The notes under the pieces are model-generated. The model was not told the origin of the DNA. It did no database searches and saw only the letters and a program-made list of their open reading frames with translations. From positions 8,062 to 72,061 of the forward strand of contig JBIOXV010000207.1 of assembly GCA_044869805.1 (NCBI GenBank): 64,000 nucleotides of DNA, written 5' to 3'. The position numbers and the translations under genes are program-made. Source of the DNA: Thermoanaerobaculia bacterium. GTDB taxonomy: Bacteria; Acidobacteriota; Thermoanaerobaculia; Multivoradales; SZUA-115. Of the stretch, positions 13,926 to 49,895 are shown one piece after another (the stretch's first letter is position 1; every line of letters begins with the position of its first letter).

Positions 13926-14060
13926 CGGAGCTTCTGCGTGTGCCATCTGCTGGGTCGCGGGTCGCCCCGCCGATCCTCTCGTGCTCCAATGTACGCTCCG
14001 GTCGCCGGGGCGTCCCGCTCCTTGCGCGTGGCTCGCTCGCGACGAGCCGTCCCGTTTGGC
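13926..14060 (+). repeat. copy A of a roughly 140-bp conserved intergenic element (three copies in the window)
   Basis: Shares a core with copies at 26306-26444 and 34754-34899: CTGC.GCG.G.CCA.CTGC.GCGTCGCGGGTC..CCCG...ATCCTC...TGTACGCTCCGGTCGCCGGG.C.TCCCGCTCCTTGC..C....CCGCTCGCGACG. Lies directly after the stop of paralog 1. Confidence 0.6.
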
Positions 14061-16714
14061 GAATTCCGATTCCCATCGCATTCCTTCTGCTCCTGGCGCC
14101 TCTCTCTCCCGCCTCCGCCCAGCCCGTTCTGCGCGAGCCGGCGACGCTCGAGGCGCCGGCGCCGCCCAGCGCCCTGCTGCGGCCGCCGCGCGGCGGGCCG
14201 GAGCTCGAGGCGCTCGCCGAGCCCTACCGGCGCTTCCTCGAGGACGTCGATGTGCTGATCACCGACGCCGAGCGCGCCGCGTTCCTCGCCTTGACCGAGG
14301 ACTACCGCCGAGACGCCTTCATCCGTGAATTCTGGAAGCTCCGCGACGCGGACCCGCGGACGGCGCGCAACGAGCGCCGGGAGGATCACGAGAAGCGCCT
14401 GGCGGAGGCGAAGCGGCTGTTCGGCGTCGCCTCCGACACGCGGTCGCGTGCGATGTTGGTCTTCGGTGTGCCGGACGAGCGCTTCGAGGTCGCCTGCGGC
14501 GGGGTGCTGTGGCCGACCGAGGCGTGGTTCTACCTCGCGCCGCAAGGCTCCTCCGAGGCCCAGCTCGCCTCCGCCAGCTCGGCCGAGCCCCTCGCCTTCC
14601 TCTTCTACCGCCGCTGGGGAGCCGGCCACTGGCAGGTGTGGGACGGCGAGGGCGGTGCGCGGGCCTTCTATCGCGACGACAGCGCCGGCGGCTCCACGGT
14701 GGGCTGCAACTACGAGCAGTTCCAACTCGCCCTGCAGCTCATCGGCAAGCGCGGCCTCGGCTACGTGGTGCTGCTCGCCCAGATCGAGCACCCGCCGAAG
14801 CCCAAGAGCAGCGAGTGGGTCGATACTTTCGCCTCCTACTCGACCGACTTGCCGGCCGGGACGGCGAGCTTCTCGGCGGAGCTCTCGCTCCGCTTCCCCG
14901 GCCGGCACGGCCGGCGGACGGTGGTCGAGGGCGTGCTCACCGTGCCGGTCGACGAGGCCGGGAGGGCGGAGCTCGGCGGGCACGCCTCCTACAACTTCGT
15001 CGTCAACGGCGAAATCCTCGCCGCCGGCGAGGCGGGGCAGGGCGCGCAGCTCTTCGAACGCTTCCGCTACCGCTTCGACGTGCCGGCGGGATCGGTCGAA
15101 GGCGGCGAGATCCCGCTCGTCTTCCAGCGCCACCTGCGGCCCGGGCGCGAGGTGACGCTGCTCGTGCGGCTGGAAGACCTGGCCGCGGGGCGCTTCTTCC
15201 GCGCCGCGCGCCGGCTGATCGTCCCCGAAGTCGACGCCATCGCGCCGCGAGCGCCTTCCGACCCGGAGACGGCCAGGCTCCTGGCGGCCGCGGACGCCGC
15301 CCTGGCCGCCGGCGAGACTACGATCGAGATCGTGCGCCCGATGGGTGCGCTCGCCGCCGGCCTCACCCGGTTCGAGAGCCTGGTGGTGGGCGAGGGGGTG
15401 GAGAAGGTCGCCTTTGCGCTCGACGGCGCCACGGTCTTCACCAAGTCCGGGCCGCCGTACTCGGTGGAGCTCGACCTCGGCCCCTATCCCGAGCCGTGGA
15501 CGCTGCGGGCGACCGCCCTCTCGGCCGCCGGCGAGGAGCTGGCGAGCGACGAGCTGCTGCTCAACGCCGGGGGCCAGCGTTTCGCCGTGCGGCTGACCGA
15601 CCCGGTGCCGGGCCGTCGCTACGACGGCGGGGTGCTCGCCCGCGCCGCCGTGGAGGTGCCCGACGGCGAGCGCCTCGACCGCCTGGAGCTGTACGTCAAC
15701 GAGGGCCTCGCCGCCACTCTCTACGGGCCGCCGCCGGAGGGCTCTTCCTTCGCGCAGCCCCTCGCGCTGCCGCCGGCCGGCGAGCCGGCCTACGTGCGCG
15801 CCGTGGCCCATCTGGCTGGCGACGGCGGGGCGGGAGACGGCGGCTCGGCGGAAGACCTGGTGTGGGTGAACGCCCCGCCCGGCTTCGGGGATTCACTCGA
15901 CGTGAACCTGGTGGAGGTCTATGCCAGCGTGGTCGATCGCCAGCGCCGGCCGGTGGCCGGCCTCGGGGAGCCCGACTTTCAGGTGCGCGAGGACGGCGCT
16001 CCCGTCCGCCTAGACCGCTTCGAGGCGGTGGCCGACCTGCCCATCCACGCTCTCGGCGTGCTCGACGTCTCGGCTTCGATGGCGGAGCTGCTGCCCGCGG
16101 CGCGGCAGGCGGCGCTCGGTTTCTTCGCGCAGCTCTCCAACCCGCGCGATCGCATGGCGCTGGTCACCTTCAACGATCGGCCGCAGCTCGCCGCGCGGTT
16201 CACCCGCGACCTCGCGCAGATCGGCGGCGCGCTCGCCGGCCTCAAGGCGGAGCGCGGCACGGCGCTCTACGACAGCCTGATCTTCGGCCTGTTCTACGCC
16301 GCCGGCTCCTCGCGCGGCAGCCTCCCCGGCCAGCGCGCCCTCGTCGTGCTCACCGACGGCGAGGACGACGGCAGCCGCTACTGCTTCGAGGACGCCCTCG
16401 ACTACGCGCGCCGCTCGGGGGTGACGATCTATGCCATCGGCCTGGGGTTGGCCGAGCCCGACGGGGCGGGCCGGCGCCTCGCCCGCCTGGCTGCCGAAAC
16501 CGGGGGCCGCGCCTTCTTCCCCGGCGCCGCCGCCGAGCTCACGCCGGTCTACGACGCCATCCTCGTCGAGCTGCGCAGCCGCTACCTCCTCGCCTACCAG
16601 CCGCTCCACGCCGAGCGCGACGGCCCCCAACGCGACGGCCCATATCGGAGGGTCGAGGTCGACGTCGACTGCCGCGGCTGCGAGGTGAAGGCCATCCAGG
16701 GTTACTACCCCTGA
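13937..16714 (+). CDS. secreted GWxTD-like/VWA protein, paralog 2 (start uncertain)
   Basis: Same architecture as paralog 1, with MIDAS VLDVSASM and C-terminal QGYYP. The only canonical in-frame starts are GTG at 13919 or 13937, which would make the repeat element part of the n-region. The signal peptide core IPIPIAFLLLLAPLSPASA begins near 14063. Confidence 0.6.
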   Translation, partial: RVPSAGSRVAPPILSCSNVRSGRRGVPLLARGSLATSRPVWRIPIPIAFLLLLAPLSPASAQPVLREPATLEAPAPPSALLRPPRGGPELEALAEPYRRFLEDVDVLITDAERAAFLALTEDYRRDAFIREFWKLRDADPRTARNERREDHEKRLAEAKRLFGVASDTRSRAMLVFGVPDERFEVACGGVLWPTEAWFYLAPQGSSEAQLASASSAEPLAFLFYRRWGAGHWQVWDGEGGARAFYRDDSAGGSTVGCNYEQFQLALQLIGKRGLGYVVLLAQIEHPPKPKSSEWVDTFASYSTDLPAGTASFSAELSLRFPGRHGRRTVVEGVLTVPVDEAGRAELGGHASYNFVVNGEILAAGEAGQGAQLFERFRYRFDVPAGSVEGGEIPLVFQRHLRPGREVTLLVRLEDLAAGRFFRAARRLIVPEVDAIAPRAPSDPETARLLAAADAALAAGETTIEIVRPMGALAAGLTRFESLVVGEGVEKVAFALDGATVFTKSGPPYSVELDLGPYPEPWTLRATALSAAGEELASDELLLNAGGQRFAVRLTDPVPGRRYDGGVLARAAVEVPDGERLDRLELYVNEGLAATLYGPPPEGSSFAQPLALPPAGEPAYVRAVAHLAGDGGAGDGGSAEDLVWVNAPPGFGDSLDVNLVEVYASVVDRQRRPVAGLGEPDFQVREDGAPVRLDRFEAVADLPIHALGVLDVSASMAELLPAARQAALGFFAQLSNPRDRMALVTFNDRPQLAARFTRDLAQIGGALAGLKAERGTALYDSLIFGLFYAAGSSRGSLPGQRALVVLTDGEDDGSRYCFEDALDYARRSGVTIYAIGLGLAEPDGAGRRLARLAAETGGRAFFPGAAAELTPVYDAILVELRSRYLLAYQPLHAERDGPQRDGPYRRVEVDVDCRGCEVKAIQGYYP

Positions 16715-16735
16715 CGTAGAGTCCTCGAGGCACAG

Positions 16736-19273: not shown

Positions 19274-19327
19274 GGCGGTCACTTCTCTGGCGGCGACGCT
19301 ACTCGCGCAAGCTCCCCGGGCTCAGGC

Positions 19328-20299
19328 TCAGAGCCAGCCCTTGCGCTTGAAGAACACGTAGGGAAGGATCGCCGCCGCCAGCATCAGGCCGAGCGAGAGC
19401 GGATATCCCAGCCGCCAGTGCAGCTCGGGAAAGACATCGAAGTTCATGCCGTAGATGCTCGCGATCAGCGTCGGCGGGAGGAAGACGACCGCCAGCACCG
19501 AGAAGAGTTTGATGATGGTGTTCTGCTCGGAGTTGATCCGCCCCAGCGTGGCGTCGAGCGCGAAGTTCACCTTGCCCGAGAGGAAGGTGGCGTGCTCGGT
19601 GAGCGCGGTGACGTCTTTGGCCACGGTCGCCCAATGCTGGTCGAGCGGCTCGCTCTCCACGCGGTTGGCCTCGAAGAAGCTCAGCAGGCGCCCAGCGCTG
19701 ACCATGCTCTCGCGCGCGCCGGCGGCGCGTTCGCCGTCGTGGCCGATGCGAGTGAGGATCTCGTTGTAATCCACACCCGATGCTGCGCCGCGGGCCGGCG
19801 AGCCTCCGAACACGACGCGGGAGATGGCGTTCACGTCCGCCGCCACCAGCTCGAGGATGTCCGCCGCCCGGTCGACGATCTCGTCGATCAGGCCGAGGAA
19901 GACGCGCTGGGCGGTGGAGAAGCTCTGCGGCGTGCGCTGCAGCTTGGCGGGGAAGGTCCGCAATGGAGCGGGCTCGGCGAAGCGTAGTGTGACCAGGCGC
20001 TCCCGGCCATAGGCGAAGGTAATGGGGGTCGTCTCGGGGCTCGTCGTATCGGCGTGGAGGAGGACGGTCAAGGTCATGAAGACGACCCCGCCTTCGACGT
20101 AGAGGCGGCTCGACACCTCGATCTCCTGGGCTTCCTTGCGGGTGGGCAGCTCGAGACCGAGGATCGCTTCGACCGCCCCTATCTCCTCGGCCGCAGGCTC
20201 GAGCAGGTCGATCCAAAGGGCCTGCTGCAGCAGCAGCGCGGCATCGGCCGCCGTCGCGTCCACCGAGTGGAATCCGGTTGGCAAGAAGGCCTTGATCAT
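19328..20299 (-). CDS. corA: magnesium/cobalt transporter CorA
   Basis: C-terminal TM hairpin with the YGMNF signature. 323 aa from an ATG preceded by GGGGAT. The longer upstream extension in the ORF track is a GC artefact. Confidence 0.85.
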   Translation of the reverse strand: MIKAFLPTGFHSVDATAADAALLLQQALWIDLLEPAAEEIGAVEAILGLELPTRKEAQEIEVSSRLYVEGGVVFMTLTVLLHADTTSPETTPITFAYGRERLVTLRFAEPAPLRTFPAKLQRTPQSFSTAQRVFLGLIDEIVDRAADILELVAADVNAISRVVFGGSPARGAASGVDYNEILTRIGHDGERAAGARESMVSAGRLLSFFEANRVESEPLDQHWATVAKDVTALTEHATFLSGKVNFALDATLGRINSEQNTIIKLFSVLAVVFLPPTLIASIYGMNFDVFPELHWRLGYPLSLGLMLAAAILPYVFFKRKGWL

Positions 20300-20365
20300 C
20301 TTGATCCCCGCGGTCTGGGCTGATCGGTCTGGCACCCTCGTGCCGTCGCGCGCGGAGCGTAGCGC

Positions 20366-21673: not shown

Positions 21674-21704
21674 CTCGCACCCGACGTTCAAGGCCGCAGA
21701 TCGC

Positions 21705-22760: not shown

Positions 22761-22945
22761 GGTCGTGGCCGCTGCGCATCCGCCGGCCGCGGCCGGAAGA
22801 CGGAGGCTGGGGCTGCCGGCAGAGTGTATGGCGGATGCGGGCGGGCGCCAAGGCGAAGCGTTACCTGTCCGCCGCCTGGCGCGCCTGCCGTCTGGCGTGC
22901 CTGGCATCTGGCGTGCCTGGCATCTAGCGTGCAGAGGCCGGCCCC

Positions 22946-25579
22946 ATGCTTTCCACCGCCCGCAGCAGCACTGCCCTCCTCCTGGTGGGCCTCGCCTCGA
23001 TAGTGTGTGCTTCGCCGGCCTCCGGCCAGGAGGCCGGCCCCTGGCCGGAGGCCGACCGCAGCTTCTTCTACGACGGCCCGGGCTGGCTGTTGGCGCCGGG
23101 GGAGCGGGAAAAACTCCTCACCACGGACGCCGCCAGCCGGGCGGCGTCGATCGCGGCGTTCCTCGACCACGACCCCATCCCGGAGACCGCCGAGCAGGAG
23201 CTCCAGGAAGGCATCCGGCGCCGACTCGAGCTGGCACGCTCGCTGTTCCTGTCGCCGGCCGACCTCCGCTACCAGCTCGTGTTCTTGAACGGCCCGCCGG
23301 CCGAGCGCATCGTGGTCGACTGCGGCCAGGCCTACAAGCCGCTCGAGGTCTGGAGCTACCCGCCGGCCACCGGCCCGGGCGCGCGTGGCATCGAGGCCCA
23401 GCAGGAGTCCGGGGCGGAGCCCGACACAGGCGAGGTCAAGGGCCGCTACCTGCGCCGGCGCTCGCGCTGGTCGGAGGAGCCGATGCTGGTGCTCTACCGC
23501 TCGACGCCGGTCGAGCCCTACCGCCTGTGGCGGCCCGACGACGGCAAGCGGGCCCTCTACACGCGGGAGATGGAGTACCTGCTCGAGCAGTACGACGAGC
23601 TGCGCAACTTCATCGTCGGCATGCGCTTCGATCTCCAGGCCTGCGACGAGGCACGCAAGATCGATCGCGCCACCGGCGTCGAGGGGCTCTCCGGGTTCCT
23701 GCGCGGCCGCCCGACCACGGCCGCCGTCGACGCCTTCGTGGGGCCGCCCAAGGACCTCGCCGCCTGGGCCCGCGAGGCTGCCCAGACCGTGCTCCCGCCC
23801 TCCGACAAGCCCACCCTCACGCTAGCGCCGCTGGCGGTCGAGTTCCCGCACTTCGCCGGCGAGCGCATGCTGGCCCGCATGATGGTGACACTGCCGGCGG
23901 GCGACCCGCTCACCGCCAACGCCGACGGCGACCTCGAGCTGATGGTCGAGGGCATTCTGTCGAGCGAAGGCCGGATCCTGGGCCAGGCCCGGCTGCGCTT
24001 CGAGATCGAGCCGCCGCCGGCCGGCCAGCAGATCAAGCTCGCCATCGACGAGCCGTTGCGCACCGGCATGCCGGTGATGGCTCACTTCAAGGTCTGGGAT
24101 GCGACCAGCGGCGCCACGGCGTGGGTGGCGAGCGGGTTCCGGGTGCCCAAGAGCCCGACGCCCCCGGAGGGCACCTCCGGCCTGATGACCGCCGCGGCGC
24201 AGGGCGAGAAGCTCGCCGCGGAGGCCGCCGCGGTCGCCCGCGACAGCCTGATGCTCGCCCCGCCGCTCGAGGGCCAGGTGGTGCTCGGGCTGTGGCGCGC
24301 CATCGCCCTGGTCACCGGCGAAGGGATCAAGAAGGTGGTCTTCAAGGTCGACGGCGTGGCGCAGGTGACGCGGGTGACCGAGCCCTGGGAGGTCGAGCTG
24401 CGCCTGGCGACCTACCCCACGGAGCAGATCGTGCGCGTCGAGGGGCTCGACGGCGCCGGCAACCTGATCGCTTCCGACGAAGTGATCCTCAACCAGCCGC
24501 GCGGCGCCTTCCGGGTGCGGATCGTCGAGCCCAAGCGCGGCGCCCGGCTGGCGGGCGAGGTCACGGCGCGGGCCGAGGTGGTGGTGCCGGACGAGCGCAC
24601 GGTGTCCAAGGTCGAGTTCAAGGTCAACGACCAGATGATCGCCACGCTCGAGAAGCCGCCGTGGACGGTGAAAGTAGTGGTGCCGGGCGCGGGCCAGACG
24701 GCCTACGTCGCGGCGACCGCCTTCCTCGACGACGGCCGCCAGGCGGAGGACGTGCGGTTCCTGAACGCGCCCGACTACGTGGAAGAGGTGGACGTGCGGT
24801 TGGTGGAGCTCTACACCACGGTGGTGGACCGCTCTGGCCGCCTCGCCCGCGGCCTGACCGACGCCGACTTCGAGGTGCAGGAGGATGGCCGCCGCCAGCA
24901 GATCACCAAGTTCGAGCTGGTCGAGAACCTGCCCCTGATCCTGGGCATCACGATCGACACCTCGGGCTCGATGGCGAGCTCGCTCGCCGAGGCGCAAGAG
25001 GCGGGCCGCAACTTCTTGAGCGAGGTGGTCCGCCCCACCGATCACTGCTTCGTGGTCGCCTTCTCCGGCAAGCCGACCCTGGTGATGCCGCCGACCGACG
25101 ACGAGGGGGCCTGCATGCAGGGGCTCGACGGCCTGCAGGCCGTGGGCTGGACGGCGCTGCACGACGCGGTGGTGACCAGCCTCTACTACATGCGGGAGCT
25201 CGAGGGCCAGCGCGCCCTGGTGCTGCTCTCCGACGGCGACGACACCGCCAGCAGCATCCGCTGGGAAGAGGCGCTCGAATACGCCAAACGCAGCGGCGTG
25301 GCGGTGTTCCCGGTCGGCCTCGGGGTCGGCGCCGCCGACCTCCGCATCCGCGGCAAGCTCGGCGATCTGGCGCGGGAGACCGGCGGGCGCCTGTTCTACA
25401 TCGACCGCGCCGAGGAGCTGGCGAGCGTCTACGACGAGATCGAGAGCGAGCTGCGCAGCCGCTATCTCATCGCCTACGCGCCGGACAGGAGCGACGAGAC
25501 CGGCGCCTTCCACCTGATCGAAGTCAAGGTGAAGAAGGACGGGTTGAAAGCGCGCACCATCCGTGGCTACTATCGGTGA
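22946..25579 (+). CDS. secreted GWxTD-like/VWA protein, paralog 4 (most divergent)
   Basis: Signal peptide, PGWLL..GEREKLL N-domain variant, MIDAS TIDTSGSM, and a C-terminal RGYYR. Confidence 0.65.
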   Translation: MLSTARSSTALLLVGLASIVCASPASGQEAGPWPEADRSFFYDGPGWLLAPGEREKLLTTDAASRAASIAAFLDHDPIPETAEQELQEGIRRRLELARSLFLSPADLRYQLVFLNGPPAERIVVDCGQAYKPLEVWSYPPATGPGARGIEAQQESGAEPDTGEVKGRYLRRRSRWSEEPMLVLYRSTPVEPYRLWRPDDGKRALYTREMEYLLEQYDELRNFIVGMRFDLQACDEARKIDRATGVEGLSGFLRGRPTTAAVDAFVGPPKDLAAWAREAAQTVLPPSDKPTLTLAPLAVEFPHFAGERMLARMMVTLPAGDPLTANADGDLELMVEGILSSEGRILGQARLRFEIEPPPAGQQIKLAIDEPLRTGMPVMAHFKVWDATSGATAWVASGFRVPKSPTPPEGTSGLMTAAAQGEKLAAEAAAVARDSLMLAPPLEGQVVLGLWRAIALVTGEGIKKVVFKVDGVAQVTRVTEPWEVELRLATYPTEQIVRVEGLDGAGNLIASDEVILNQPRGAFRVRIVEPKRGARLAGEVTARAEVVVPDERTVSKVEFKVNDQMIATLEKPPWTVKVVVPGAGQTAYVAATAFLDDGRQAEDVRFLNAPDYVEEVDVRLVELYTTVVDRSGRLARGLTDADFEVQEDGRRQQITKFELVENLPLILGITIDTSGSMASSLAEAQEAGRNFLSEVVRPTDHCFVVAFSGKPTLVMPPTDDEGACMQGLDGLQAVGWTALHDAVVTSLYYMRELEGQRALVLLSDGDDTASSIRWEEALEYAKRSGVAVFPVGLGVGAADLRIRGKLGDLARETGGRLFYIDRAEELASVYDEIESELRSRYLIAYAPDRSDETGAFHLIEVKVKKDGLKARTIRGYYR

Positions 25580-25624
25580 GCCCCGCGCCGGCCGCGCCCT
25601 CGTGGCCGGCGCCGGGCGACGATC

Positions 25625-26305
25625 ATGCGCCTCCCGACTCGCACCGTAGCCCTCGCCGCCTTCCTTTCTCTGGCCGGTGCCGGAGTCTTCGCCGTGGGGG
25701 CCTTCGCCGCGGAGACCGGGGTCTTCGAGCTGGGGTCACTCAACAAGCGGTACGACCACCTGACCTCCGACCTGGCGCCGATCGAGACCGGCGGCATCAA
25801 GGTCCAGCTCTCCTCACCGCAGCACGAGCTCTCCCTGTTGTCGAACCGCTTGGTGCTGCGGCCCCTCGGCCCCGGCAGTTACGACCTCGCCCTGCAGATC
25901 GAGTTCGGCGGCAGCGGCTCGCTGATCGCCGACCTCGACGTCTCGGGCGCCGCCTCCAGGCTCACGGACGAGCTCGTGGTGCCGGCCCAGCGGCGCACGG
26001 TGCTCGCCAAGGTGAAGATCGCGCGCTCCCGCTCGGGCTACCTCATCACGCCGCTCGAGCTGCCGAGCGACTTCCAGGTCGAGATCGAGAGCCGCCTGGG
26101 CTCGCAGCTCGTCGCCGCCTGCCGGCCGCTCGGCCTGCTGATGCCGCTCAACTGCGACGACCTCGAGCGCGCGCTGACGCTGGTCTCGATCCCCATGCCG
26201 GCGCCGGGCGAGACCTACCTGTTCGAGAGCGAGCGCCTGGCGGAGAGCGAGCGCCGCGACCTGGACGCCTATCTGAAGCGCACCGGCGCTACGTTCCTCG
26301 AGTAG
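25625..26305 (+). CDS. secreted hypothetical protein, likely co-transcribed with paralog 4
   Basis: Signal peptide, 46-bp gap after paralog 4, same strand. I recognise no domain. Confidence 0.45.
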   Translation: MRLPTRTVALAAFLSLAGAGVFAVGAFAAETGVFELGSLNKRYDHLTSDLAPIETGGIKVQLSSPQHELSLLSNRLVLRPLGPGSYDLALQIEFGGSGSLIADLDVSGAASRLTDELVVPAQRRTVLAKVKIARSRSGYLITPLELPSDFQVEIESRLGSQLVAACRPLGLLMPLNCDDLERALTLVSIPMPAPGETYLFESERLAESERRDLDAYLKRTGATFLE

Positions 26306-26444
26306 CCTGGAACGAAACCTACTGTGCGGTCCATCTGCTGCGTCGCGGGTCCTCCCCGCGATCCTCACGTACTGACGTGTACGCTGCGGTCGCCGGGTCC
26401 TCCCGCTCCTTGCACCTAGACCGCTCGCGACGGTTTCGTTCCAG
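26306..26444 (+). repeat. copy B of the roughly 140-bp conserved element, with a perfect 14-bp terminal inverted repeat
   Basis: The arms CCTGGAACGAAACC ... GGTTTCGTTCCAGG flank the conserved core. The element fills the whole gap between two convergent stop codons. Confidence 0.65.
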
Positions 26445-26446
26445 GC

Positions 26447-29400
26447 TCAGATCGCGCGGCCAGCTCCCGGGGCCGCCGGCCAGGTCAGGCCCTCCTGCGT
26501 GGCCAGGGCGACGATCTCCTGGTGCTCGCGGACCCGGAAGAGGAAGGTGTGCCGCTCCGTGGGGCTGAGGCCGTCGGCCTTGGCGAGCAGCAGCCGATAG
26601 GCGAGGCGCAGGTGCGGCAGGGCGCCGCGCGGCCGGCTGTCGCGGCGGGCGAGCCAGGCGAGGGCCTGATAGAGGCGTAGCTCGCCGATCTCGCGGCGCT
26701 CCAGGTGCAGGCTCTCCCCGAGGAACGCCCCGAGATCGGCGGCGAGGCGCTCGACCCTGGCCTCGTCCGCGGCCGCCATCGCGAGGTCCAGCCAGGCTGT
26801 GAGGTCGAGCAGGATCGCCTCGCGATCGCCTACCCGTCGGTGCGCCGCCACCGCCTCGGCAAACGCCGAGGCGGCCTCGCTCCATTGGCGCTTGGCGAGC
26901 AGCACCTCGCCGATCAGTCGCTGGGCGTCGCCAAGGGCGGCGTTCAAGGAGCTCTGCAGCCGCAGGTCGAACTGCGCCCTGCGAGCTTCCTCGAGCGCGC
27001 TGTCGAAGCTCTCGAGGTGGAAGTAGTTCTCGGCCACGGCGAGCCGGGCGATGGCCGCGCCCGAGGCATCCTCGCTCGCTTCGCGCAGCGCCAGCGCCCG
27101 CCGCAAGGGGGCCGAGGCGGTGGCGAAGTCACCCAGGCGGGAGAGGGCCTTGGCGATGCCGAGCAGCGCAAAGCCGACTTCGGCGGGGTCCCCCGCGGCC
27201 GCCAGCACGCTTTCGGCTTCCCGGTAGTGGGCCAGGGCGGCGGGGTAGCGGCCCTCGAGCAACGCGATCCGGCCCAGGGCGGAGAGCGAGCTGCCGACGG
27301 CCTTCGGCTTGTCGAGGTGGCGGCGGATGGCGAGCGCCCGCTCGTGGAGCTCGAGGCCGTCGCGCAGCCGGCGCTGGTGCACGGCGACATTGCCGAGGTG
27401 GAAGAGGCAGCTCGCGGCGAGCGAGGAGGTGTCGGCCGGCCCGAGGTGGGGAAGCACCCGCTCGAGCAGCTCGCCGGCCTCCTGGTGGTGCTCCTGGCGG
27501 ATCAGCAGCCGCGCCAGGTGGAGCACCAGCACGGCGCCGGCCAGCGGCTCGCGGGCGCCGGGCCCCGAGAGCGCCTGGCGAAGGGTCGCCTCGGCATCCG
27601 CCAGGCGCCCTTCCTGCTCCTCGAGCTCGGCGGCGAGGCCCGCCAGGGCCAGCGCCTTCCTGGAGTCGCCCTGGGCCAGGGCGCGGGCGAGAGTCAGCTC
27701 GTCGGCGAGGTCCCGCAAGCGCCCCAGCTTTCTGGCCAGGGGCAGGAGGTGCCAGAGGATCAGCAGCTCGAGCTGCGGCTGGCCGCTCGGCAGGTCCTTG
27801 GCGCGCTTCCGCAAGGCGTCGAGCTCAGCGGCGAGGGCCTGGAAGAGCGCTTCGGGCGGCGCCCCTCCCTCCGCCACCGCCTCGAGCAGCGCCGTGAGCC
27901 CCAGCGGCGAGGTGGCGAGCAGCGCGTAGCGCGGCCAGGCAGCCTGCGGCACCGCCGGCAGCGTCTTCCCCAACGTCAACCGGAGGCGGGCGGCCTCCGC
28001 GCCGGGAAGGGTGGCGCGCAGCGCCGCGGCCAGGGCCGGGCAGGCGAGCACCAGGCCGGGGCCCCAGGCCGACGGGGCCGCCTCGGCCCAGCCCTCCTTC
28101 ACCCACGCTCCTGCCCAGCCGGCCGCGAGCGCCTCGCCCCCGGCCGCGGCCAGGGCCTGCGGCGGCACCGGCAGGCCGGCGACGGCCAGCAGGCGGGAGG
28201 CGAGCGGCCCGCCCAGGCGGCGGGCCTCGGCTTCCGCGTGCTGCACCAGCCGCTCGGAGGGAAGGTAGGTCGTCGCTTCGCTGCCACCGAAGAAGAAGCT
28301 GCCGAGCACCTGGCGAATCAGGCCGGCCTGGACCATCGCCGTCAAGCCCTCCTCCAGTGCGAACGGGTTGCCGTGCGCCACCTCCAGCAGGGTGGTCTGC
28401 ACGGCGGCGGGAAGCGACAGGCTGGCGCCGAGCCGCGAGAGCGTAGCCGCGAGGTCGGCGGCAGGCAGCGGCTCGACGCGCGCCCCCAGCGCGGAGGAGC
28501 GCCTGAGGCCAGCCGGCAGCGAGCGGCCGGCCGCGACCAGGCGGAAGCCGCCCTTCGCGGTGGCCGTCTCGGCCAACCATGCGAGGAAGGCGAGATCCTC
28601 CGCGGTCGCCCCTTCGAGGCCGTCCACCACCACGACCGGCGGCCGGCCCGCCGCCCGGCCCAGCTCGGCGAGGAGGCCGGGCAGGGCGGGCCCGACCCGC
28701 TGGTCGTCGACGCCGAGGTCCGCCAGCCCTTGAAAGGCCGCGCCCGCCGCGGTGCCGGCGGCCAGCATGCGGAGGAGGAGCTGGGTGGTGAGCGTCGGCC
28801 CCGCCTGCCGTGCCGGCCTCGGACTCGTCCACAGCACGGGAGCGCCGGCGCCCGCCAGAGCCTCCCAGACCGCACGCGTCTTGCCGCAGCCTGCCGGGCC
28901 GGTCACCACCACCCGCGGTGCCGGGGAGGCCAGCACCTTGTCGAGCTCCGGCCGGGGCACGTAGGCCGAGCGGCGCTTGAGCGGGCGGGGGTTCCGGTAG
29001 GGTGGCGCTTCGGTGTCCTCGCCGAGGGCCTGGACCAAGGGCACCCGCAGGCCACCGAGCCCCTGGAAGGTCCCGGCCGGCCGCAGCTTGCGGCGCACCT
29101 CCAGGCGGGCCGCGGCGTGCGTGGTGAGGAAGACCTTGCCCGCTTCGAGGGCCGGCGCCCGCCGCTCCGTCTCCTCGAGCAGGGGGTTGGCCACTACCGC
29201 GGCGGCGGGGAGCTCGATCTGCCCGGGCAAGAGCAGGAAGCGCAGGCCGCCGCCCCGCGGGCCGGGGCCACCGCCGGCGGCGGCGGTGGCGGAAAGCAGC
29301 TCGGCGGCCACCACCAGGGCGGCATCGAAGACCGCCGGGTCGCCGGCCTCCGGCACCACGGCGCAGAGGTTGGGCCGTGGCCAGAGCACCCCGGGGCGCT

Positions 29401-29524
29401 CGCGCACCGCGCCGCGTGCCGCCGCCAGGGTCTCGGCCCGGCCGTGCTCCTCCCACACCCGGAGCAAGGCGGCGGGCACGATGAGGCGGGGCTCAGGGGC
29501 GCGGTCCTGGTCCATGGTCGCCAC
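26447..29524 (-). CDS. STAND-type P-loop NTPase with C-terminal TPR-like repeats
   Basis: Walker A (VVTGPAGCGKTR), a long alpha-helical TPR-like C-terminal region, about 190 aa of uncharacterised N-domain, and no HTH found. Confidence 0.55.
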   Translation of the reverse strand: MATMDQDRAPEPRLIVPAALLRVWEEHGRAETLAAARGAVRERPGVLWPRPNLCAVVPEAGDPAVFDAALVVAAELLSATAAAGGGPGPRGGGLRFLLLPGQIELPAAAVVANPLLEETERRAPALEAGKVFLTTHAAARLEVRRKLRPAGTFQGLGGLRVPLVQALGEDTEAPPYRNPRPLKRRSAYVPRPELDKVLASPAPRVVVTGPAGCGKTRAVWEALAGAGAPVLWTSPRPARQAGPTLTTQLLLRMLAAGTAAGAAFQGLADLGVDDQRVGPALPGLLAELGRAAGRPPVVVVDGLEGATAEDLAFLAWLAETATAKGGFRLVAAGRSLPAGLRRSSALGARVEPLPAADLAATLSRLGASLSLPAAVQTTLLEVAHGNPFALEEGLTAMVQAGLIRQVLGSFFFGGSEATTYLPSERLVQHAEAEARRLGGPLASRLLAVAGLPVPPQALAAAGGEALAAGWAGAWVKEGWAEAAPSAWGPGLVLACPALAAALRATLPGAEAARLRLTLGKTLPAVPQAAWPRYALLATSPLGLTALLEAVAEGGAPPEALFQALAAELDALRKRAKDLPSGQPQLELLILWHLLPLARKLGRLRDLADELTLARALAQGDSRKALALAGLAAELEEQEGRLADAEATLRQALSGPGAREPLAGAVLVLHLARLLIRQEHHQEAGELLERVLPHLGPADTSSLAASCLFHLGNVAVHQRRLRDGLELHERALAIRRHLDKPKAVGSSLSALGRIALLEGRYPAALAHYREAESVLAAAGDPAEVGFALLGIAKALSRLGDFATASAPLRRALALREASEDASGAAIARLAVAENYFHLESFDSALEEARRAQFDLRLQSSLNAALGDAQRLIGEVLLAKRQWSEAASAFAEAVAAHRRVGDREAILLDLTAWLDLAMAAADEARVERLAADLGAFLGESLHLERREIGELRLYQALAWLARRDSRPRGALPHLRLAYRLLLAKADGLSPTERHTFLFRVREHQEIVALATQEGLTWPAAPGAGRAI

Positions 29525-29676
29525 GCACGTAGGACTGCCGTGGGGAGCGCCGGGGCCTCAGGGCTTGCTCAGCGAGAAAACTGCGATATTCTAGGGGCCG
29601 GCCTGGAAGCTGAAGGGCCGACCGCCGTCGTCGCCTCGCACCCTGAATCCCAGCCCAGATCGCCGTCCCCCAGACG

Positions 29677-30267
29677 GTGAATCTGCTTGCGGCAATTCGC
29701 GTCGGAGGAAAACTGAGCATGCGCTCCCGCCGTCTAATGAATCGGCTCTATTATTTCACAATTGAAGACGAAAGCATCCTCGCCGAGGCGTTCGGCAAGC
29801 TCGAGGATGACGTCTACGCCATCACCTACAAGGTCACCGGCACCGACGACGTCTTCGTCACCACCCGCGAGACCAAAGACGCGATGGATCGCAACGACGT
29901 CTCCTACAACCTCCTGGCGGAGGAGGACGCGTCGCGCATCTCCATCTATCACTCGCCGCTGTCGCGCGAGGAGCTGTCCGACTACGAGGACGCGATCCGC
30001 GCCCTCGCCCTCGCCCACCGCGCCATCGCGCTCGCCTGCGTCGGCGTCAACGGCGAAACCAACCTTGGCTTCGACCTTTCTGAAGGTCCGAAGCAGTACA
30101 CGTATTTCTCGGCTCCGGGCGGCCACACCTTCATCTGGCGCCTGTTCTTCGAGCGCGAGGACGCGCAGAGCTTCCTCGAGCGCTGGACGTTCGGCGAGAA
30201 GCGCGCCCTGGAGTGGGCCGCTTCGATCCCGCTCGTCTCGGCGAGCGAGCTGCGGTCGTATCATTGA
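29677..30267 (+). CDS. hypothetical protein (start uncertain; alternative ATGs at 29719 and 29740)
   Basis: ORF in a locally lower-GC patch. Its stop overlaps the xseA start. I recognise no domain. Confidence 0.4.
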   Translation: MNLLAAIRVGGKLSMRSRRLMNRLYYFTIEDESILAEAFGKLEDDVYAITYKVTGTDDVFVTTRETKDAMDRNDVSYNLLAEEDASRISIYHSPLSREELSDYEDAIRALALAHRAIALACVGVNGETNLGFDLSEGPKQYTYFSAPGGHTFIWRLFFEREDAQSFLERWTFGEKRALEWAASIPLVSASELRSYH

Positions 30268-31673
30268 CGTACCCGGCGGCCGATACCACTCACTCCGTCT
30301 CCGAGCTCTGCGACGGCATCCACGCCCTCCTCGCGGAGGCCTTCCCGTCGTTGTGGGTGGCGGGGGAGGTGCAGCGGGTCCGGCGTAGCCAGCGCGGCCA
30401 CCTCTACTTCGAGCTCGTCGAGAAGGGCGCCGGCGACGAGGTCGCGGCCAAGCTCGACGCCGTGATCTGGCGCACCGACCTCGAGCGCATCAGCCGCCTG
30501 CTCGCCGCCTCGGGGCAGTCGATCGCCGAAGGGGTGGATCTGCGCTGCCGGGCCGGGGTGGACTTCTACCCGCCCGGCGGCCGGCTGCAACTCGTGGTGC
30601 GCGAGGTCGACCCGCTGGCCACCCTCGGCCTGCTCGAGCGCCGCCGCCAGCAGACGCTCGCCGAGCTGGCCGCGGCCGGCCTCCTCGACAAGAACCGCGG
30701 CCTGGCCCTGCCCGATCTCCCGCTCGAGGTGGCGCTCGTCACTTCGCACGGCAGCGCCGCCTACCACGACTTCCTCTCTACCCTGCGCGAGAGCGGCTAC
30801 GGCTTCCGGGTGCTCTTCGTACACGCCTCGGTGCAGGGCAAGAACGCGGAGCGCGAGATTGCCTCGGCCCTCGCGGCGCTGGCCGGGTCCGGCGCGCGCC
30901 TGGCCTGTGCCGTGCTGGTGCGCGGCGGCGGCTCGCGCTCCGACCTCGCCGTATTCGACAGCCGCGAGGTCGCCCTCGCCGTGGCCGGCGCGCCCTTCCC
31001 CGTAGTCACCGGGCTCGGCCACGAGATCGACCAGGCGATCGCCGACCGCGTGGCCCACACCGCGGTGAAGACCCCCACCAAGGCCGCCGAGCTGCTGGTG
31101 GAGATGGTGGCACGCGCCGAGCAGGGGCTCGCCGCGCTCGCCGGCGGGCTCAAGTCCGCTGCCCTGCTGCCGCTCGACCGCGGGCGGCACCGCCTGGCGC
31201 TTGCCGAGCACGGGGTGACGCGCGCCCGGCACCGCTTGGCGCTCGCGGGCTCGCGCCTGGCCGAGCTGCACCGTTCGCTCGGCCGCGCCGGCCTCGTTCT
31301 ACTGCGCACCGCCGCCCACCGCCGCCGGGCTCTGGCCGAGCGGCTGCGCGACGCCTCGCCGCGCCTACTCGATCGCCGGGACGGAGAGCCGCGGCTTGCC
31401 GCGGCACGGCTCGCGTCCGCGTCGCGCGGCCAGCTCCGCGCGGCCTCGCGCGTCCTCTCCGGGCTCGAGCGCCTGTGCCTGGAGCTCGGCCCCGGCCGTA
31501 CGCTGCGCCGCGGGTTCACCATCACCCGCACGGCGGGCGGCGCGCTGATCCGCTCCCCGGCGGCGCTCGAGGCGGGCGAGCGCATCGTCACCGAGACGGC
31601 CGGCGGCACCCTGGCGAGCCGCGTCGAGAGCGCCCTCGCCCAGGCCGCCGGCGTGGAGGCCCGTGCCGTATGA
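30264..31673 (+). CDS. xseA: exodeoxyribonuclease VII large subunit
   Basis: OB-fold N-terminus and an ExoVII_L catalytic and coiled-coil region. The probable TTG start overlaps the upstream stop (ATTGA). xseB overlaps its stop. Confidence 0.8.
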   Translation: MTYPAADTTHSVSELCDGIHALLAEAFPSLWVAGEVQRVRRSQRGHLYFELVEKGAGDEVAAKLDAVIWRTDLERISRLLAASGQSIAEGVDLRCRAGVDFYPPGGRLQLVVREVDPLATLGLLERRRQQTLAELAAAGLLDKNRGLALPDLPLEVALVTSHGSAAYHDFLSTLRESGYGFRVLFVHASVQGKNAEREIASALAALAGSGARLACAVLVRGGGSRSDLAVFDSREVALAVAGAPFPVVTGLGHEIDQAIADRVAHTAVKTPTKAAELLVEMVARAEQGLAALAGGLKSAALLPLDRGRHRLALAEHGVTRARHRLALAGSRLAELHRSLGRAGLVLLRTAAHRRRALAERLRDASPRLLDRRDGEPRLAAARLASASRGQLRAASRVLSGLERLCLELGPGRTLRRGFTITRTAGGALIRSPAALEAGERIVTETAGGTLASRVESALAQAAGVEARAV

Positions 31674-31930
31674 GCTCCGAAAAGACGAACCAGCCGGCTG
31701 CGAGCGCCGCCTCCGAGGCGCCGGCACCGAGCTTCTCCGAGGCGATGGCCGAGCTGGAGTCGATCCTGGCGCGTATCGAGAGCGAGGAGATCGACGTCGA
31801 CGACCTCGCCCACGAGCTGCGGCGGGCGAGCGAGCTGCTGGAGATCGCGCGCGGCAAGATCCGCAAGGCCGAGGTGGAGGTCACGCAGATCGTGCAGGCG
31901 CTCGACGCCGAAGAGCGCGACAGCGAGTAG
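31670..31930 (+). CDS. xseB: exodeoxyribonuclease VII small subunit
   Basis: 86-aa helical protein (FSEAMAELESILARIESEE..). Its ATG overlaps the xseA stop (ATGA). Confidence 0.85.
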   Translation: MSSEKTNQPAASAASEAPAPSFSEAMAELESILARIESEEIDVDDLAHELRRASELLEIARGKIRKAEVEVTQIVQALDAEERDSE

Positions 31931-32029
31931 CGCGCCTGCGGCGTCAGGTCACGACACAACGGCGAAGGTCGACCAGGGCGCCGCAACGCCGGCCTTGCCA
32001 GCGCTCCCGCCCGTCCGTAGGATGGGCCG

Positions 32030-34753
32030 GTGCGTCTTGCTTCCGTGCGCGGCCCGCTCGCGGGCTGCCTGCTCGCCGCCCTAGCCGTCTCCGCCGTCGA
32101 AACCCCGGCGCCCGAACCGGCGCTCTCCGACCCGCCCGCCAAGTACACTGCCTGGCTCGCCGAGGTGGCGGTCCTGATCTCGGACGCCGAGCGCCAGGCG
32201 TTCCTCGCCCTGGGCAAGGATTTCCAGCGCGAGGAGTTCATCCGCCGTTTCTGGCAGGCGCGCGATCCCTACCCCCAGACGGCGCGCAACGAATTCCGAG
32301 AGGGATGGAACGAGCGGGTGGAAGAGGCGCGCAAGCGCTTCGACGGGCTGGAGGGAGCCCGCGCGCGGATGCTCCTGGCGCTGGGGCCGCCGGAGTCCAC
32401 AGTGCGCGCCTCCTGCAGCGAGCTGCTGCGGCCGCTGGAGATCTGGTGGTACTCCCGGGTGCGCGGCGTGCGCGATTCCTTCGCCCTCGTCTTCGTGGCG
32501 CCCACCGGCGCGCCGGGAGGGCCGTTCGAGCTCTGGCACCCGACCCAGGGCCTGCAATCGCTGCTCTCGCCGTCGAGTCAGGCCTTCTCCGAGCCTGCGC
32601 CGAGGGACCTGCTCGTGCCCGGCGGCGCCGCGCGGGGGCGCGCCAGCTCGCGGGGGAACGACGGCGAGGGAATGGGCGCCTCGGGGTTCGGGTCGGCCCC
32701 TGCTTTGGGAGCTTTGGGGGCGGGAAGCGAGCCCGGCCGGGTCTTCGCGGCCATCGCCGAGCGCTGCAGCCGCGGCGACGACATCCTCTCCGGCCTGGCG
32801 AGCGCCGTCGACCTGGGAGCGGCCGGCGTCGAGCGCGCGCTGCTGCCGCGGCCGAGCGATGAGTGGCTGCGCACCTTCGTGGCCTACTCGACCGACCTGC
32901 CCGCCGGCGCCGCCATCTTCGAGGCCGACCTCGCCGTCGCCTTTCCCGGCCGCCAGCAGAGCCGCACCGTGATCCAGGGCCTGCTCTCCGTGCCAGTGCC
33001 GGAGGGGGTGCCAGTGCCGGAAGGGGTGCCAGTGCCGGAAGGGGAGGGAGGCGCGGCGCGCCAAGGCTACGTGCTCGACGGCGAGGTGCTGCGCGGCGAG
33101 GAGCTGTTCGAGCACTTCCGCTACCGGTTCCAGATGGGCGCCGCGGACCGGGTCGAGGGTCGCTGGCCGCTCCTGTTCCAGCGCCTGCTGCGGCCCGGCG
33201 AGTACACTTTGATCCTCAAGCTCGAAGAGCAGGGCAGCGGCCGCTTCTTCCGCGCCGAGCGGCAGCTCTCGGTGCCGGCCGAGACGGGACCCGCGACGGT
33301 GCCGGCGGGGCCAGCGGCCGCCGCCTCGGAGCTGACGGGTGCCGGCCCGGCAGCCCCCGCGCGCGACCCCCGGGCGCCGGTGCTCGCCGAGGCGAACGCG
33401 GCGCTCGCCGGGAGCGACAGCGCCGTCGAGCTGCTGGCGCCGCCGGCGCGCCTGCTCACCGGGCGCCAGCGCTTCGAGGCCCTGGCGGTGGGCGCTACGG
33501 TCTCGCGGGTGCGCTTCGACCTCGACGGCAAGCCGGTGCTCACCAAGCGCGAGCCGCCGTTCAGCGCCGAGGTGGACCTCGGCCCCGCGCCGCGCATCCA
33601 TCGGCTGCGGGCGGTGGCGCTCGACACCGAGGCGCGCGAGCTCGCGACCGACGAGCTGATCGTCAACGCCGGGCCGCACCGCTTCGCCGTGCGTCTGATC
33701 GAGCCGCGGCCCGGCGAGCGCTACACGGCGAGCGTGCCGGCCGCCGCCGTGGTCGAGGTGCCGGAGGGCGAGGTGCTCGAGCGCCTCGAGCTCTACCGCG
33801 GCGAGGCCCTGGTCGCGACCCTCTTCCAGTCGCCGTTCTCGCAGCCCATCCTGCTCCCCGCCGGCGAGGAGGCGGCCTACGTGCGGGCGGTGGCGCATCT
33901 CGCCGGCGGCGGCTCGGCCGAGGACGCCGTGCTGATCAACAGCCCGCAGTTCGGCGAGAGCGTGAAGGTGCGCTTCGTCGAGCTCTACACCGCGGTCGTC
34001 GATCGCCGCGGGCGGCCGGTCGAGGGCCTGGCGCGCGACGACTTCCGGGTGTTCGAGAACGGTGCCGAGCAGAGCGTGATGCGCTTCGAGAAGGTGCGCG
34101 ACCAGCCCATTCACGCCGGCATCCTGCTCGACACCTCGGCCTCGATGCTCGAGGAGCTCGACGACGCCGAGGCGGGCGCCCTCCAGTTCTTCCGCTCGGT
34201 TCTGACGCCGAGGGACCGCGCCGCGGTGATCACCTTCAATGACGGGCCGCGCCTCGCCGTGCGCTTCACCAGCGACCCCGAGGTCCTGGCCGGCGGCCTT
34301 TCCGGCCTGACCGCCGAGGGCGAGACGGCGCTCTACGACAGCCTGATCTACGCCCTCTACTACTTCAGCGGCCTGTCCGGAAAACGCGCCCTGATCCTGC
34401 TCTCCGACGGCGAGGACTCCTCCAGCCGCTACCGCTTCGAGGAGGTGGTCGAGTACGCCCGCCGCACGGGCGTAGCGATCTACCCGATCGGCATCGATCT
34501 CGCGAGCCGCCAGAACGAGTTCCGCCTGAAGCTCTCGCGCCTGGCGCGGGAGACGGGGGGGCTCGCCTTCTTCACCGAGGGCGCGAGCGGCCTCGGCCGT
34601 GCCTACGACGCGATCGCCGCGGAGCTGCGCTCGCAGTACCTGCTCGCCTACCAGTCGGCGAGCGAGGGGAGAGACGAGGCGTTCCGCGAGATCGAGGTGA
34701 AGATGCGGGAGGCGGGGCTGGATGCGAAGACGATCCTCGGCTACTACCCCTGA
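32030..34753 (+). CDS. secreted GWxTD-like/VWA protein, paralog 5
   Basis: GTG start, signal peptide, FWQARDPYPQTARNE motif, internal VPVPEG x3 tandem repeat, MIDAS LLDTSASM, and a terminal LGYYP. Confidence 0.7.
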   Translation: MRLASVRGPLAGCLLAALAVSAVETPAPEPALSDPPAKYTAWLAEVAVLISDAERQAFLALGKDFQREEFIRRFWQARDPYPQTARNEFREGWNERVEEARKRFDGLEGARARMLLALGPPESTVRASCSELLRPLEIWWYSRVRGVRDSFALVFVAPTGAPGGPFELWHPTQGLQSLLSPSSQAFSEPAPRDLLVPGGAARGRASSRGNDGEGMGASGFGSAPALGALGAGSEPGRVFAAIAERCSRGDDILSGLASAVDLGAAGVERALLPRPSDEWLRTFVAYSTDLPAGAAIFEADLAVAFPGRQQSRTVIQGLLSVPVPEGVPVPEGVPVPEGEGGAARQGYVLDGEVLRGEELFEHFRYRFQMGAADRVEGRWPLLFQRLLRPGEYTLILKLEEQGSGRFFRAERQLSVPAETGPATVPAGPAAAASELTGAGPAAPARDPRAPVLAEANAALAGSDSAVELLAPPARLLTGRQRFEALAVGATVSRVRFDLDGKPVLTKREPPFSAEVDLGPAPRIHRLRAVALDTEARELATDELIVNAGPHRFAVRLIEPRPGERYTASVPAAAVVEVPEGEVLERLELYRGEALVATLFQSPFSQPILLPAGEEAAYVRAVAHLAGGGSAEDAVLINSPQFGESVKVRFVELYTAVVDRRGRPVEGLARDDFRVFENGAEQSVMRFEKVRDQPIHAGILLDTSASMLEELDDAEAGALQFFRSVLTPRDRAAVITFNDGPRLAVRFTSDPEVLAGGLSGLTAEGETALYDSLIYALYYFSGLSGKRALILLSDGEDSSSRYRFEEVVEYARRTGVAIYPIGIDLASRQNEFRLKLSRLARETGGLAFFTEGASGLGRAYDAIAAELRSQYLLAYQSASEGRDEAFREIEVKMREAGLDAKTILGYYP
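32990..33043 (+). repeat. three 18-bp tandem repeats encoding (VPVPEG)x3 inside paralog 5
   Basis: GTGCCAGTGCCGGA(A/G)GGG repeated three times. Confidence 0.7.
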
Positions 34754-34899
34754 GAGCCCATGAGGAAACCTGCTGCGCGGGCCACCTGCAGCGTCGCGGG
34801 TCCTCCCGGGAATCCTCACAGGCTGTCGTGTATGCTCCGGTTCCCGGGCCCTCCCGCTCCTTGCATCTGGCCCGCTCGCTACGGTTTCCTCACGGGCTC
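34754..34899 (+). repeat. copy C of the roughly 140-bp conserved element, with a 17-bp terminal inverted repeat (16/17)
   Basis: The arms GAGCCCATGAGGAAACC ... GGTTTCCTCACGGGCTC flank the conserved core. Lies directly after the stop of paralog 5 and before maf. Confidence 0.65.
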
Positions 34900-34905
34900 T
34901 TCACC

Positions 34906-35520: not shown

Positions 35521-35815
35521 TCGGATCGCCGAGCTGATTCAACGCAAAGTTGGCCATGATCTGGTGGCCGTTGAAATCGAGCACCCGGATATCCTGCGCC
35601 TTCTCGAGATCGGCCGCGATCGAGGCGAAGGAGTGGCTGTAGCGCTGGCGGACGGCTTCCAGGTCCACCTCGTAGGCGATGAACTTGTCGATGCCCTTGT
35701 ATCGCAGCTTCTCGACCAGCCGCTCGTCGGTGAGCTGGGGGAAAGTCGAGAGCACCAGGATCGGCCCGGTGCCGGTGAAGATCAGGTATGCGCGGGTCGA
35801 GGCGTGGACGCTCAT
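35504..35815 (-). CDS. small hypothetical protein (103 aa)
   Basis: Clean ORF with a purine-rich RBS. Convergent with maf and overlaps its end. I recognise no domain. Confidence 0.35.
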   Translation of the reverse strand: MSVHASTRAYLIFTGTGPILVLSTFPQLTDERLVEKLRYKGIDKFIAYEVDLEAVRQRYSHSFASIAADLEKAQDIRVLDFNGHQIMANFALNQLGDPIKVGD

Positions 35816-45813: not shown

Positions 45814-45822
45814 GTGGCGCAG

Positions 45823-48168: not shown

Positions 48169-48184
48169 TGGCGGGGTCCCCCTC

Positions 48185-49306: not shown

Positions 49307-49345
49307 TGTTTGCCCTCCATATCCGAGCTCTCAACGGATGTCGCC

Positions 49346-49893: not shown

Positions 49894-49895
49894 AC

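Follow-up and report, generated by a model that had tools for sequence, protein, structure and literature searches.

Insertion sequences of the IS1031 group (IS5 family) prefer TNA triplets as their targets and generate an exclusively 3-bp duplication (PMC1676026, PMC12016507), while the ERIC repeats and the Correia/NEMIS repeats of Neisseria, which are analogues rather than relatives of the element described below, are regarded as miniature transposable elements with inverted repeats (MITEs) (PMC2267715). In Xanthomonas, the small RNA (sRNA) sX9 has been confirmed by Northern analysis as an RNA of 75 nt (PMC3300014), and it counts among the most frequent sRNA annotations of bacteria (PMC9029176). 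We analyzed in silico a stretch of 64,000 nucleotides from a Thermoanaerobaculia bacterium (NCBI GenBank assembly GCA_044869805.1, contig JBIOXV010000207.1, positions 8,062 to 72,061 of the forward strand), referred to here as the window, which has a G+C content of 71% and carries three copies (A, B and C) of a hairpin-forming element. These copies are probably old and independent insertions of a non-autonomous transposon of about 150 bp, a MITE, that have survived on stop codons and are co-transcribed with the gene upstream as a 3' hairpin.

A dispersed repeat that forms one long hairpin

The original prediction, made by a model from the letters of the window, had placed three same-strand copies of a conserved element within a few nucleotides of the stop codons of their upstream genes. 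Both points proved correct: the copies lie at the positions given below, and each of them starts directly after the preceding stop codon, at a distance of 0 nt.

13926..14056, + strand: copy A, between paralog 1 and paralog 2 of the GWxTD/VWA genes; 106.7 bits with the covariance model
26306..26445, + strand: copy B, the whole spacer between two convergent stop codons; 155.6 bits with the covariance model
34754..34899, + strand: copy C, between paralog 5 and maf; 157.5 bits with the covariance model
13972..14004, + strand: apical core of copy A in the alignments, GATCCTCT-CGTGC...GTACG-CTCCGGTCG
26360..26392, + strand: apical core of copy B in the alignments, GATCCTCA-CGTAC-TGACGT-GTACG-CTGCGGTCG
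34810..34843, + strand: apical core of copy C in the alignments, GAATCCTCA-CAGGC...GTATG-CTCCGGTTC
13923..13925, + strand: TGA stop codon of paralog 1, abutting copy A; a candidate TNA target
26303..26305, + strand: TAG stop codon of a 226-aa gene, abutting copy B
26447..26449, - strand: stop codon of the convergent AAA_16/TPR gene (TCA on the + strand), 1 nt beyond copy B
34751..34753, + strand: TGA stop codon of paralog 5, abutting copy C; a candidate TNA target

When aligned, the three copies share a mean column identity of 79%, and an nhmmer profile built from them matched all three in the 64-kb window with E values of 4e-41 to 1.5e-47; no fourth copy was found in the window, where nothing further scored below E 0.3. 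With its filters off, the covariance model gave at most 40 bits to the - strand of the three sites, and the next-best match in the window reached 13.8 bits. Public data contain 14 further distinct copies, which were collected with patterns from the conserved core, in one scan of genomes and one of metagenomes, and filtered with nhmmer; together with the three window copies they make up the 17 sequences of alignment A4. Among the hits of the first genome-collection pattern chance matches prevailed, with only three real loci out of 24. A peptide search with the most open frame of the element gave two hits, one of which led to a locus in the Bdellovibrionota (L106), and a core-pattern scan of viral contigs gave no match. 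The copies stand after unrelated genes, between convergent genes or upstream of divergent genes, and the orientation relative to the flanking genes is mixed among the metagenome copies. A bias toward the orientation of a sense 3' untranslated region (3' UTR) had appeared strong at first but was gone once uninformative convergent gene pairs were set aside. Two copies at different loci of one metagenome-assembled genome (MAG; L018 and L023) are about 98% identical. Identity to the L034-type consensus is 87% for copy B and 86% for copy C (winB and winC in the alignment), against only 81% between the two, as independent decay from a master copy predicts.

Terminal inverted repeats that differ in sequence but remain complementary had been described for copies B and C. 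They are indeed present in both: in copy B, CCTGGAACGAAACC (26306-26319) pairs with GGTTTCGTTCCAGG (26432-26445) in a perfect outer stem of 14 bp, and in copy C, the ends of which are near the family consensus, GAGCCCATGAGGAAACC (34754-34770) pairs with GGTTTCCTCACGGGCTC (34883-34899). The pairing is, however, not merely terminal, and the whole element constitutes one long imperfect hairpin. In alignment A4 this hairpin comprises 41 pairs, with 94% of the cells paired, and the covariation expected from the comparison of the first three copies was found at 24 of these pairs, which change on both sides. None of 500 shuffles reached any of five pairing measures, and pairing fell to 27-45% when the partner was slid by one to three columns. 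The fold z-scores of the + strand are -3.3 for copy A, -7.4 for copy B and -7.8 for copy C. At seven pairs copy B has both partners changed relative to the family consensus, with pairing retained in every case. Copy A is the most decayed of the three; its consensus ends are gone, and its two UCCU loops, which now read TCGC and GCGT through mutation, have come to pair with one another. Quasi-palindromes tend to be perfected by template switching, and the retention of pairing during decay could reflect either selection for the hairpin or such perfection; our data do not separate the two.

Two unpaired motifs are invariant in the family. A 4x4 loop, UCCU/UCCU, is bordered by GCGGG/CCCGC and CCC/GGG, and a second loop, CUCA/GCUC, surrounds an apical hairpin of 5 bp that itself covaries (CGUAC/GUACG, CAACC/GGUUG, CCUAC/GUAGG, CAUAC/GUAUG). 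Two U.G pairs are likewise invariant, and in the acidobacterial copies G.U outnumbers A.C by 42 to 11, an excess that marks the + strand as the better-pairing strand. The internal direct sub-repeat GGGTCCTCCCG that the original prediction had assigned to every copy occurs twice in B and twice in C but is degenerate in A. The short open reading frame (ORF) it had noted was found in all three (MYAPVAGASRSL, VYAAVAGSSRSL and VYAPVPGPSRSL) in frames that differ between the copies; in an element of 131-152 bp, frames are open only by chance. In its sequence, the CCUCC-rich + strand is reminiscent of an anti-Shine-Dalgarno sequence and the GGA-rich - strand of CsrA-binding sites.

Ends, insertion sites and neighboring genes

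In most copies the consensus ends are AGAGCCTGTGAAtcAATC and GATTTCTTCACAGGCTCT. The end of the element begins with GAGCCTGT, and the consensus end GAGCCTGTGAATCAATC has its complement at the other end of the element. Compared with a single published repeat, the inverted repeat of ISLrh (GAACCTGTCTAGTATCT), the element end agrees at seven of the first eight bases and at nine of 17 overall. Identical TNA triplets flank the copies at L081 (TGA), L035 (TCA) and L036 (TAA), and the TGA at L058 counts as a repeat if the end is read one base further out; the flanks agree at two of three positions at L005, L086 and L034, and L057 and L083 have no flanking repeat. Perfect TNA repeats are also present at three enteric relatives of the element (L107, L110 and L114), which read TAA-CAGCCTATCCCA...GGGATAGGCAT-TAA, TTA-GCGCCTGTCCCA...GGTAGGCTC-TTA and TAA-GAGCCTATCCCA...GGGATAGTCTC-TAA. 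In six of the eight copies that have TNA on both sides, the N is the same (P = 0.004). The element is not long enough to contain a transposase gene. We searched the genes of the window for transposases, integrases and RAYT proteins by Pfam/NCBIfam scans of 20 of the 46 called genes, the rest being judged by eye from the gene list, and in this way recognized no transposase or integrase in the 64-kb window.

To related Thermoanaerobaculia we owe the comparison of orthologous sites. On the 718-kb contig L103 (ERZ25039550 contig_43653), which encodes a Maf protein 74% identical to that of the window, the gene order is the same (VWA, 220-aa gene, AAA_16/TPR gene, XseA/B, VWA, Maf). Site C is empty there, the last VWA gene and maf overlapping as cTTGA, and site B is occupied by an unrelated 41-nt spacer without the element. 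Site A is empty in L115, in which the orthologues of paralogs 1 and 2, both VWA genes, overlap as ATGA, and in L117 (TGATG). In a closer relative (L104/L105; Maf 86% identical), a copy of 93 bits lies downstream of maf, at a site where both the window and L103 have overlapping gene ends and no element. Such insertion polymorphism at orthologous sites is what an IS1031-type MITE should display, and together with the dispersed copies in unrelated contexts, the IS1031-like ends and the TNA flanks these empty sites support one of the two readings offered originally, that of a miniature inverted-repeat element.

The tie to the GWxTD/VWA gene family that was proposed along with it has to be given up. 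The genes upstream of copies A and C do combine GWxTD with acidobacterial VWFA domains (TIGR04514, TIGR03436), with close homologues that bear the name Thermoanaerobaculia in their sources, yet copies elsewhere adjoin unrelated genes, and relatives possess the same VWA genes without the element. A false lead, namely the element as a regulator of this gene family, is thereby removed.

In the window, five GWxTD/VWA paralogs lie within 24 kb (11319-34753), and three of these stand in tandem. This triplet and the later pair of paralogs keep their order in L103 and L115, where adjacent genes overlap by 1-4 nt. At the site held by copy C in the window, L104 has a stretch of about 50 nt (GCTCGTAGCTGGACCCGCTACTGCCCGCGAGGGTATCTTCACAAGCCC; 398-450, also L105 14-66), the end of which resembles the 3' end of the element, and which may be an internally deleted remnant.

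Each of the insertions A and C separates two genes that in relatives overlap and are translationally coupled. Between copy A and the signal peptide of paralog 2 (IPIPIAFLLLLAPLSPASA) there is no in-frame ATG, GTG or TTG, and the only in-frame starts in window positions 13922-14100 are two GTG codons, at 13922 and 13940, on the 5' edge of copy A. The public paralog 2 protein (P0123) accordingly has 924 aa, including an element-encoded extension of 41 aa, while its orthologues of 849-867 aa start about where copy A ends. Likewise, the public Maf protein (P0001) has 230 aa and starts at GTG 34828 inside copy C, while TTG 34906, 7 nt beyond copy C, would give a Maf of 204 aa, as long as its orthologues. 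The public annotation therefore extends paralog 2 through copy A and Maf into copy C, with residues that the orthologues do not possess. The possibility, raised at the outset, that the element is part of the coding sequence of longer proteins in related genomes therefore falls, and the annotation of paralog 2 (924 aa) and Maf (230 aa) is corrected. A small protein gene was rejected on the same absence from orthologues and on the differing frames of the copies.

At L018 (5700-5960, - strand), the element lies between a signal peptide of lipoprotein type (MRHPLPARLLALLAFMAGC) and another ORF with a lipobox, the frame of which extends back into the element, and at L086 (16-60) an ORF with a Tat signal (TSRRDFLKTG) begins, without a preceding start codon, at the element edge on the - strand; both are genes for secreted proteins with starts abutting the element, as is the case for paralog 2. 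At L005, an ORF on the - strand (836-1885) with a high third-position G+C of 0.89 runs through the whole element before it stops; the flanks there are TCT on the 3' side and TCA on the 5' side, which suggests a lost stop codon.

A site scan detected no promoter-like or terminator-like site at or near any of the copies. These must be transcribed along with the genes upstream of them and, in such transcripts, would fold into a highly stable 3' hairpin. In the region 25000-35600, the only sigma-70-like promoter matches are at 25544-25573 and 31995-32023 (0.2 expected by chance), just upstream of the 226-aa gene and of paralog 5. Scanning of the whole window against Rfam 15 revealed no family at gathering score, and neither Acido-1 nor Acido-Lenti-1 matched the copies and their relatives at E values up to 5-10, so that the Acido-type motif considered in the original prediction finds no support; at these permissive values sX9 alone gave hits, all of them below its threshold. 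Further downstream (43644-50294), the window contains a small defense-type island whose third-position G+C is lower, at about 0.81-0.83. It encodes a nucleotidyltransferase resembling AbiEii, a fragment in which a TSPPY methylase motif occurs, a member of the DndB family (E 1e-104), a PIN protein and a 781-aa protein with no Pfam match.

The apical module outside the Acidobacteriota

The tip of the hairpin, AAUCCUCA-hairpin-CUCCGGUU, is a module of about 35 nt that recurs in Bdellovibrionota, in Escherichia coli and in the Xanthomonas sRNA sX9. The Bdellovibrionota MAG (L106) has copies at 50 and 39 bits and, in addition, an AT-rich relative with a perfect 24-bp terminal repeat (CTAGGGCGTGTTGACGTTTCATTT). 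At this locus a GC-richer copy is followed directly by an AT-rich relative with the same apical motif, and the pair is present twice within 4 kb (1980-2340, - strand; 4020-4210, + strand).

A blastn search with the consensus found AAATCCTCACGTAC..GTGTACGCTCCGGTTT to be 91-97% identical over 30-36 nt in Escherichia, Salmonella, Klebsiella, Citrobacter and Yersinia, where the module forms the tip of a 150-bp palindromic repeat. This repeat is present in all 5426 of 5426 complete E. coli genomes, at a median of five places per genome. Its sites include glrK-qseG, ycbX-rlmKL, phnC-phnD and xylA-xylB, and its orientation is sense in glrK-qseG and antisense in phnCD and xylAB. Scored over their full length with model R1, copies from E. 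coli, Citrobacter, Yersinia and Salmonella reach 30-43 bits. In E. coli K-12 the entire 164-nt glrK-qseG spacer (L109; 2689507-2689670) is one related repeat, which is unannotated in the RefSeq record. The E. coli repeats are probably those of the RSA/BEE95 family; a literature search for 'RSA' repeats and for the core sequence gave nothing usable.

For sX9, the Rfam model RF02228 scored 12.4 bits on winC, 27.6 bits on L051 and 29-32 bits on the E. coli copies, all of which are below its gathering score of 44. From the apical hairpin on, the 3' half of the element can be aligned with the consensus of sX9 (GUAC..GUAC-CUCCGGUUCC ... GCUCGCUACG), with an alignment score of 48-52 against 24 +/- 4 for shuffles (z about 6-7), and the published 5' end of this RNA falls at the apical hairpin (PMC3300014).

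The cross-phylum conservation of the apical core is unexpected. Conceivably, though on balance we doubt it, the mobile hairpin is a vehicle for a sequence-specific functional module at its tip (AAUCCUCA, the covarying 5-bp hairpin and CUCCGGUU), an RNA or single-stranded DNA motif that would bind a universal bacterial factor or process itself; in keeping with this, the tip is nearly unchanged across Acidobacteriota, Bdellovibrionota, Enterobacteriaceae and Xanthomonas (sX9), while the arms would have been replaced many times, and the 5' end of sX9 coincides exactly with the edge of the tip. One 35-nt module links an acidobacterial repeat, an old and little-studied repeat family of E. coli and a small RNA of Xanthomonas. 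If the vehicle idea were true, this would be a cross-phylum, transposon-borne non-coding RNA so far unrecognized as one family, and if the module were functional, E. coli would offer an immediate experimental handle with its median of about five copies, one of them inside the glrK-qseG operon.

Origin of the copies and comparison with known systems

For the MITE that we consider the probable source of the three copies, the following course of events can be proposed. A DDE transposase from the IS1031 group of the IS5 family, with its gene at some other place, would recognize the ends that begin with GAGCCTGT and insert the element at a TNA triplet, which would be duplicated in the process. On a TGA or TAA stop codon, the duplication would regenerate the stop and leave the upstream frame intact. 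Both of these codons are TNA triplets, so that the upstream gene would survive the event; in a genome dense with genes, insertions of this kind would be the ones that last, which would explain why every copy begins at a stop codon. The window may thus serve as a clean example of why small TNA-target transposons accumulate precisely at stop codons. Once transcribed along with the upstream gene, the element would fold into one long hairpin, and the pairing that is kept or restored during decay may mean that the hairpin is needed for propagation or that it makes the insertion tolerable, for example as a protector of the 3' end.

Several observations weigh against this explanation. An intact TNA duplication is found at none of the three window copies, since copy C is flanked by TGA and TTC, copy B by TAG and TCA, and copy A has lost its ends. 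No autonomous insertion sequence with the ends of the element was found in the window and the retrieved loci, and the copy number per genome seems low, close-set copies being present only in the window and in L106. Moreover, the interior of the element is better conserved than its ends, the reverse of an ordinary DDE-type MITE, which suggests that the core and not the ends is seen by selection. Finally, the strand preference apparent from the invariant U.G pairs and the ratio of 42 to 11 is not expected of a purely double-stranded DNA element.

The strand preference is among the arguments for regarding the element primarily as a functional structured RNA (a 3' UTR-derived or processed sRNA, or a protein-binding or self-processing module) whose mobility is only the means of its spread, and whose active part would be the apical module (CUCA/GCUC around the covarying 5-bp hairpin) together with the UCCU/UCCU loop of the acidobacterial copies. 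The stems covary while the unpaired motifs are invariant, the apical module is near-identical in Acidobacteriota, Bdellovibrionota and Enterobacteriaceae with arms diverged beyond recognition, and the 3' half resembles sX9 (z about 6-7; 27-32 bits), a 75-nt RNA confirmed by Northern analysis with its 5' end at the apical hairpin (PMC3300014). The structural premise of the original prediction, which had offered a structured RNA as one of its readings, thus stands on strong covariation. Its functional part fares less well, as no Rfam family reached gathering score and the site scan revealed nothing promoter-like or terminator-like at the copies or close to them, while the enteric relatives stand in both orientations inside operons and the metagenome copies are mixed as well. 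Relatives do well without the element at all three sites, and copy A lost its loop motifs while it kept the pairing. We consider this explanation unlikely; of the pair of readings, structured RNA and MITE, an RNA function is the unproven half.

Selection on pairing rather than on arm sequence would also suit movement as single-stranded DNA through an HUH-type enzyme, with an element that is REPIN/RAYT-like or an IS200/IS605-derived palindrome and with the hairpin and its conserved loops as the recognition target. On one strand the GGGTCCTCCC motif is repeated directly, an arrangement also seen in the pair of end hairpins of IS200/IS605 elements; the core is better conserved than the termini, and strand asymmetry is seen. 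This route is nevertheless quite improbable, given that the 3-bp direct repeats at the flanks of the element and its conserved GAG...CTC termini are foreign to HUH transposition, that there is no GTAG-type REP head, that no RAYT or TnpA gene was recognized in the window by the scans and inspection described above, and that the copy numbers are far below those of typical REPIN populations. Far less probable still is a conserved 3' flank that was duplicated along with the GWxTD/VWA paralogs, that is, segmental duplication without any insertion. All three copies do lie on the same strand within one 21-kb paralog cluster, and A and C follow homologous C-termini (...GYYP*); copy B, however, comes after another gene, no copy accompanies paralogs 2, 3 and 4, both B and C resemble the copies of other organisms more closely than they resemble each other, and relatives with the same paralog array do not have the element. 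Contradicted by the empty sites, this candidate was rejected. Integron attC-like recombination sites or intrinsic terminators behind gene cassettes were rejected too, and are hardly credible: the copies are imperfect palindromes right after stop codons in which pairing is conserved more than arm sequence, but the defining features of neither are present. The RYYYAAC and GTTRRRY boxes are missing (copy B has ..GAAACC/GGTTTCGT and copy C ..GAAACC/GGTTTCCT), the same gene survey of the window recognized no integrase, a conserved center with variable ends is the reverse of attC, and no T-run follows any of the hairpins, the tails of which are TTTGGCGAAT, TCAGATCGCG and TTCACCTTGC.

Among described systems, the REPIN/REP-RAYT repeats are, like the element, hairpin-forming repeats with compensatory changes that preserve pairing, as is generally known of REPINs. 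The element differs from them by the absence of a GTAG head, by its flanking direct repeats and low copy number and by the lack of a RAYT gene seen nearby; REP units, about 25 nt long, are inverted and come without a target duplication, whereas the repeated GGGTCCTCCC motifs are direct. The ERIC and Correia/NEMIS repeats are imperfect palindromes of 100-160 bp in intergenic DNA that are co-transcribed with flanking genes. They have no sequence similarity to the element and other target duplications (TA for Correia), and we know of no core in them that is conserved across phyla in a comparable manner. sX9, compared here via its Rfam consensus alone, is modeled as a 76-nt RNA with three small hairpins and not as half of a 150-nt palindrome. 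The enterobacterial repeats differ from the element in arms that do not align by sequence and in the absence of UCCU/UCCU loops, but they share its length, its single long hairpin, its apical module and ends (GAGCCTAT/CAGCCTAT) with TAA or TTA flanks. In comparison with IS1031-group MITEs, the element has a better conserved interior than ends, forms one covarying hairpin over its whole length, and is present in the window in copies without duplication; in common with them, it is about 150 bp long without an ORF of its own, has ends beginning with GAGCCTGT and is polymorphic for presence and absence, and the 3-bp TNA repeats, seen at many copies but not at all of them, would be a further likeness.

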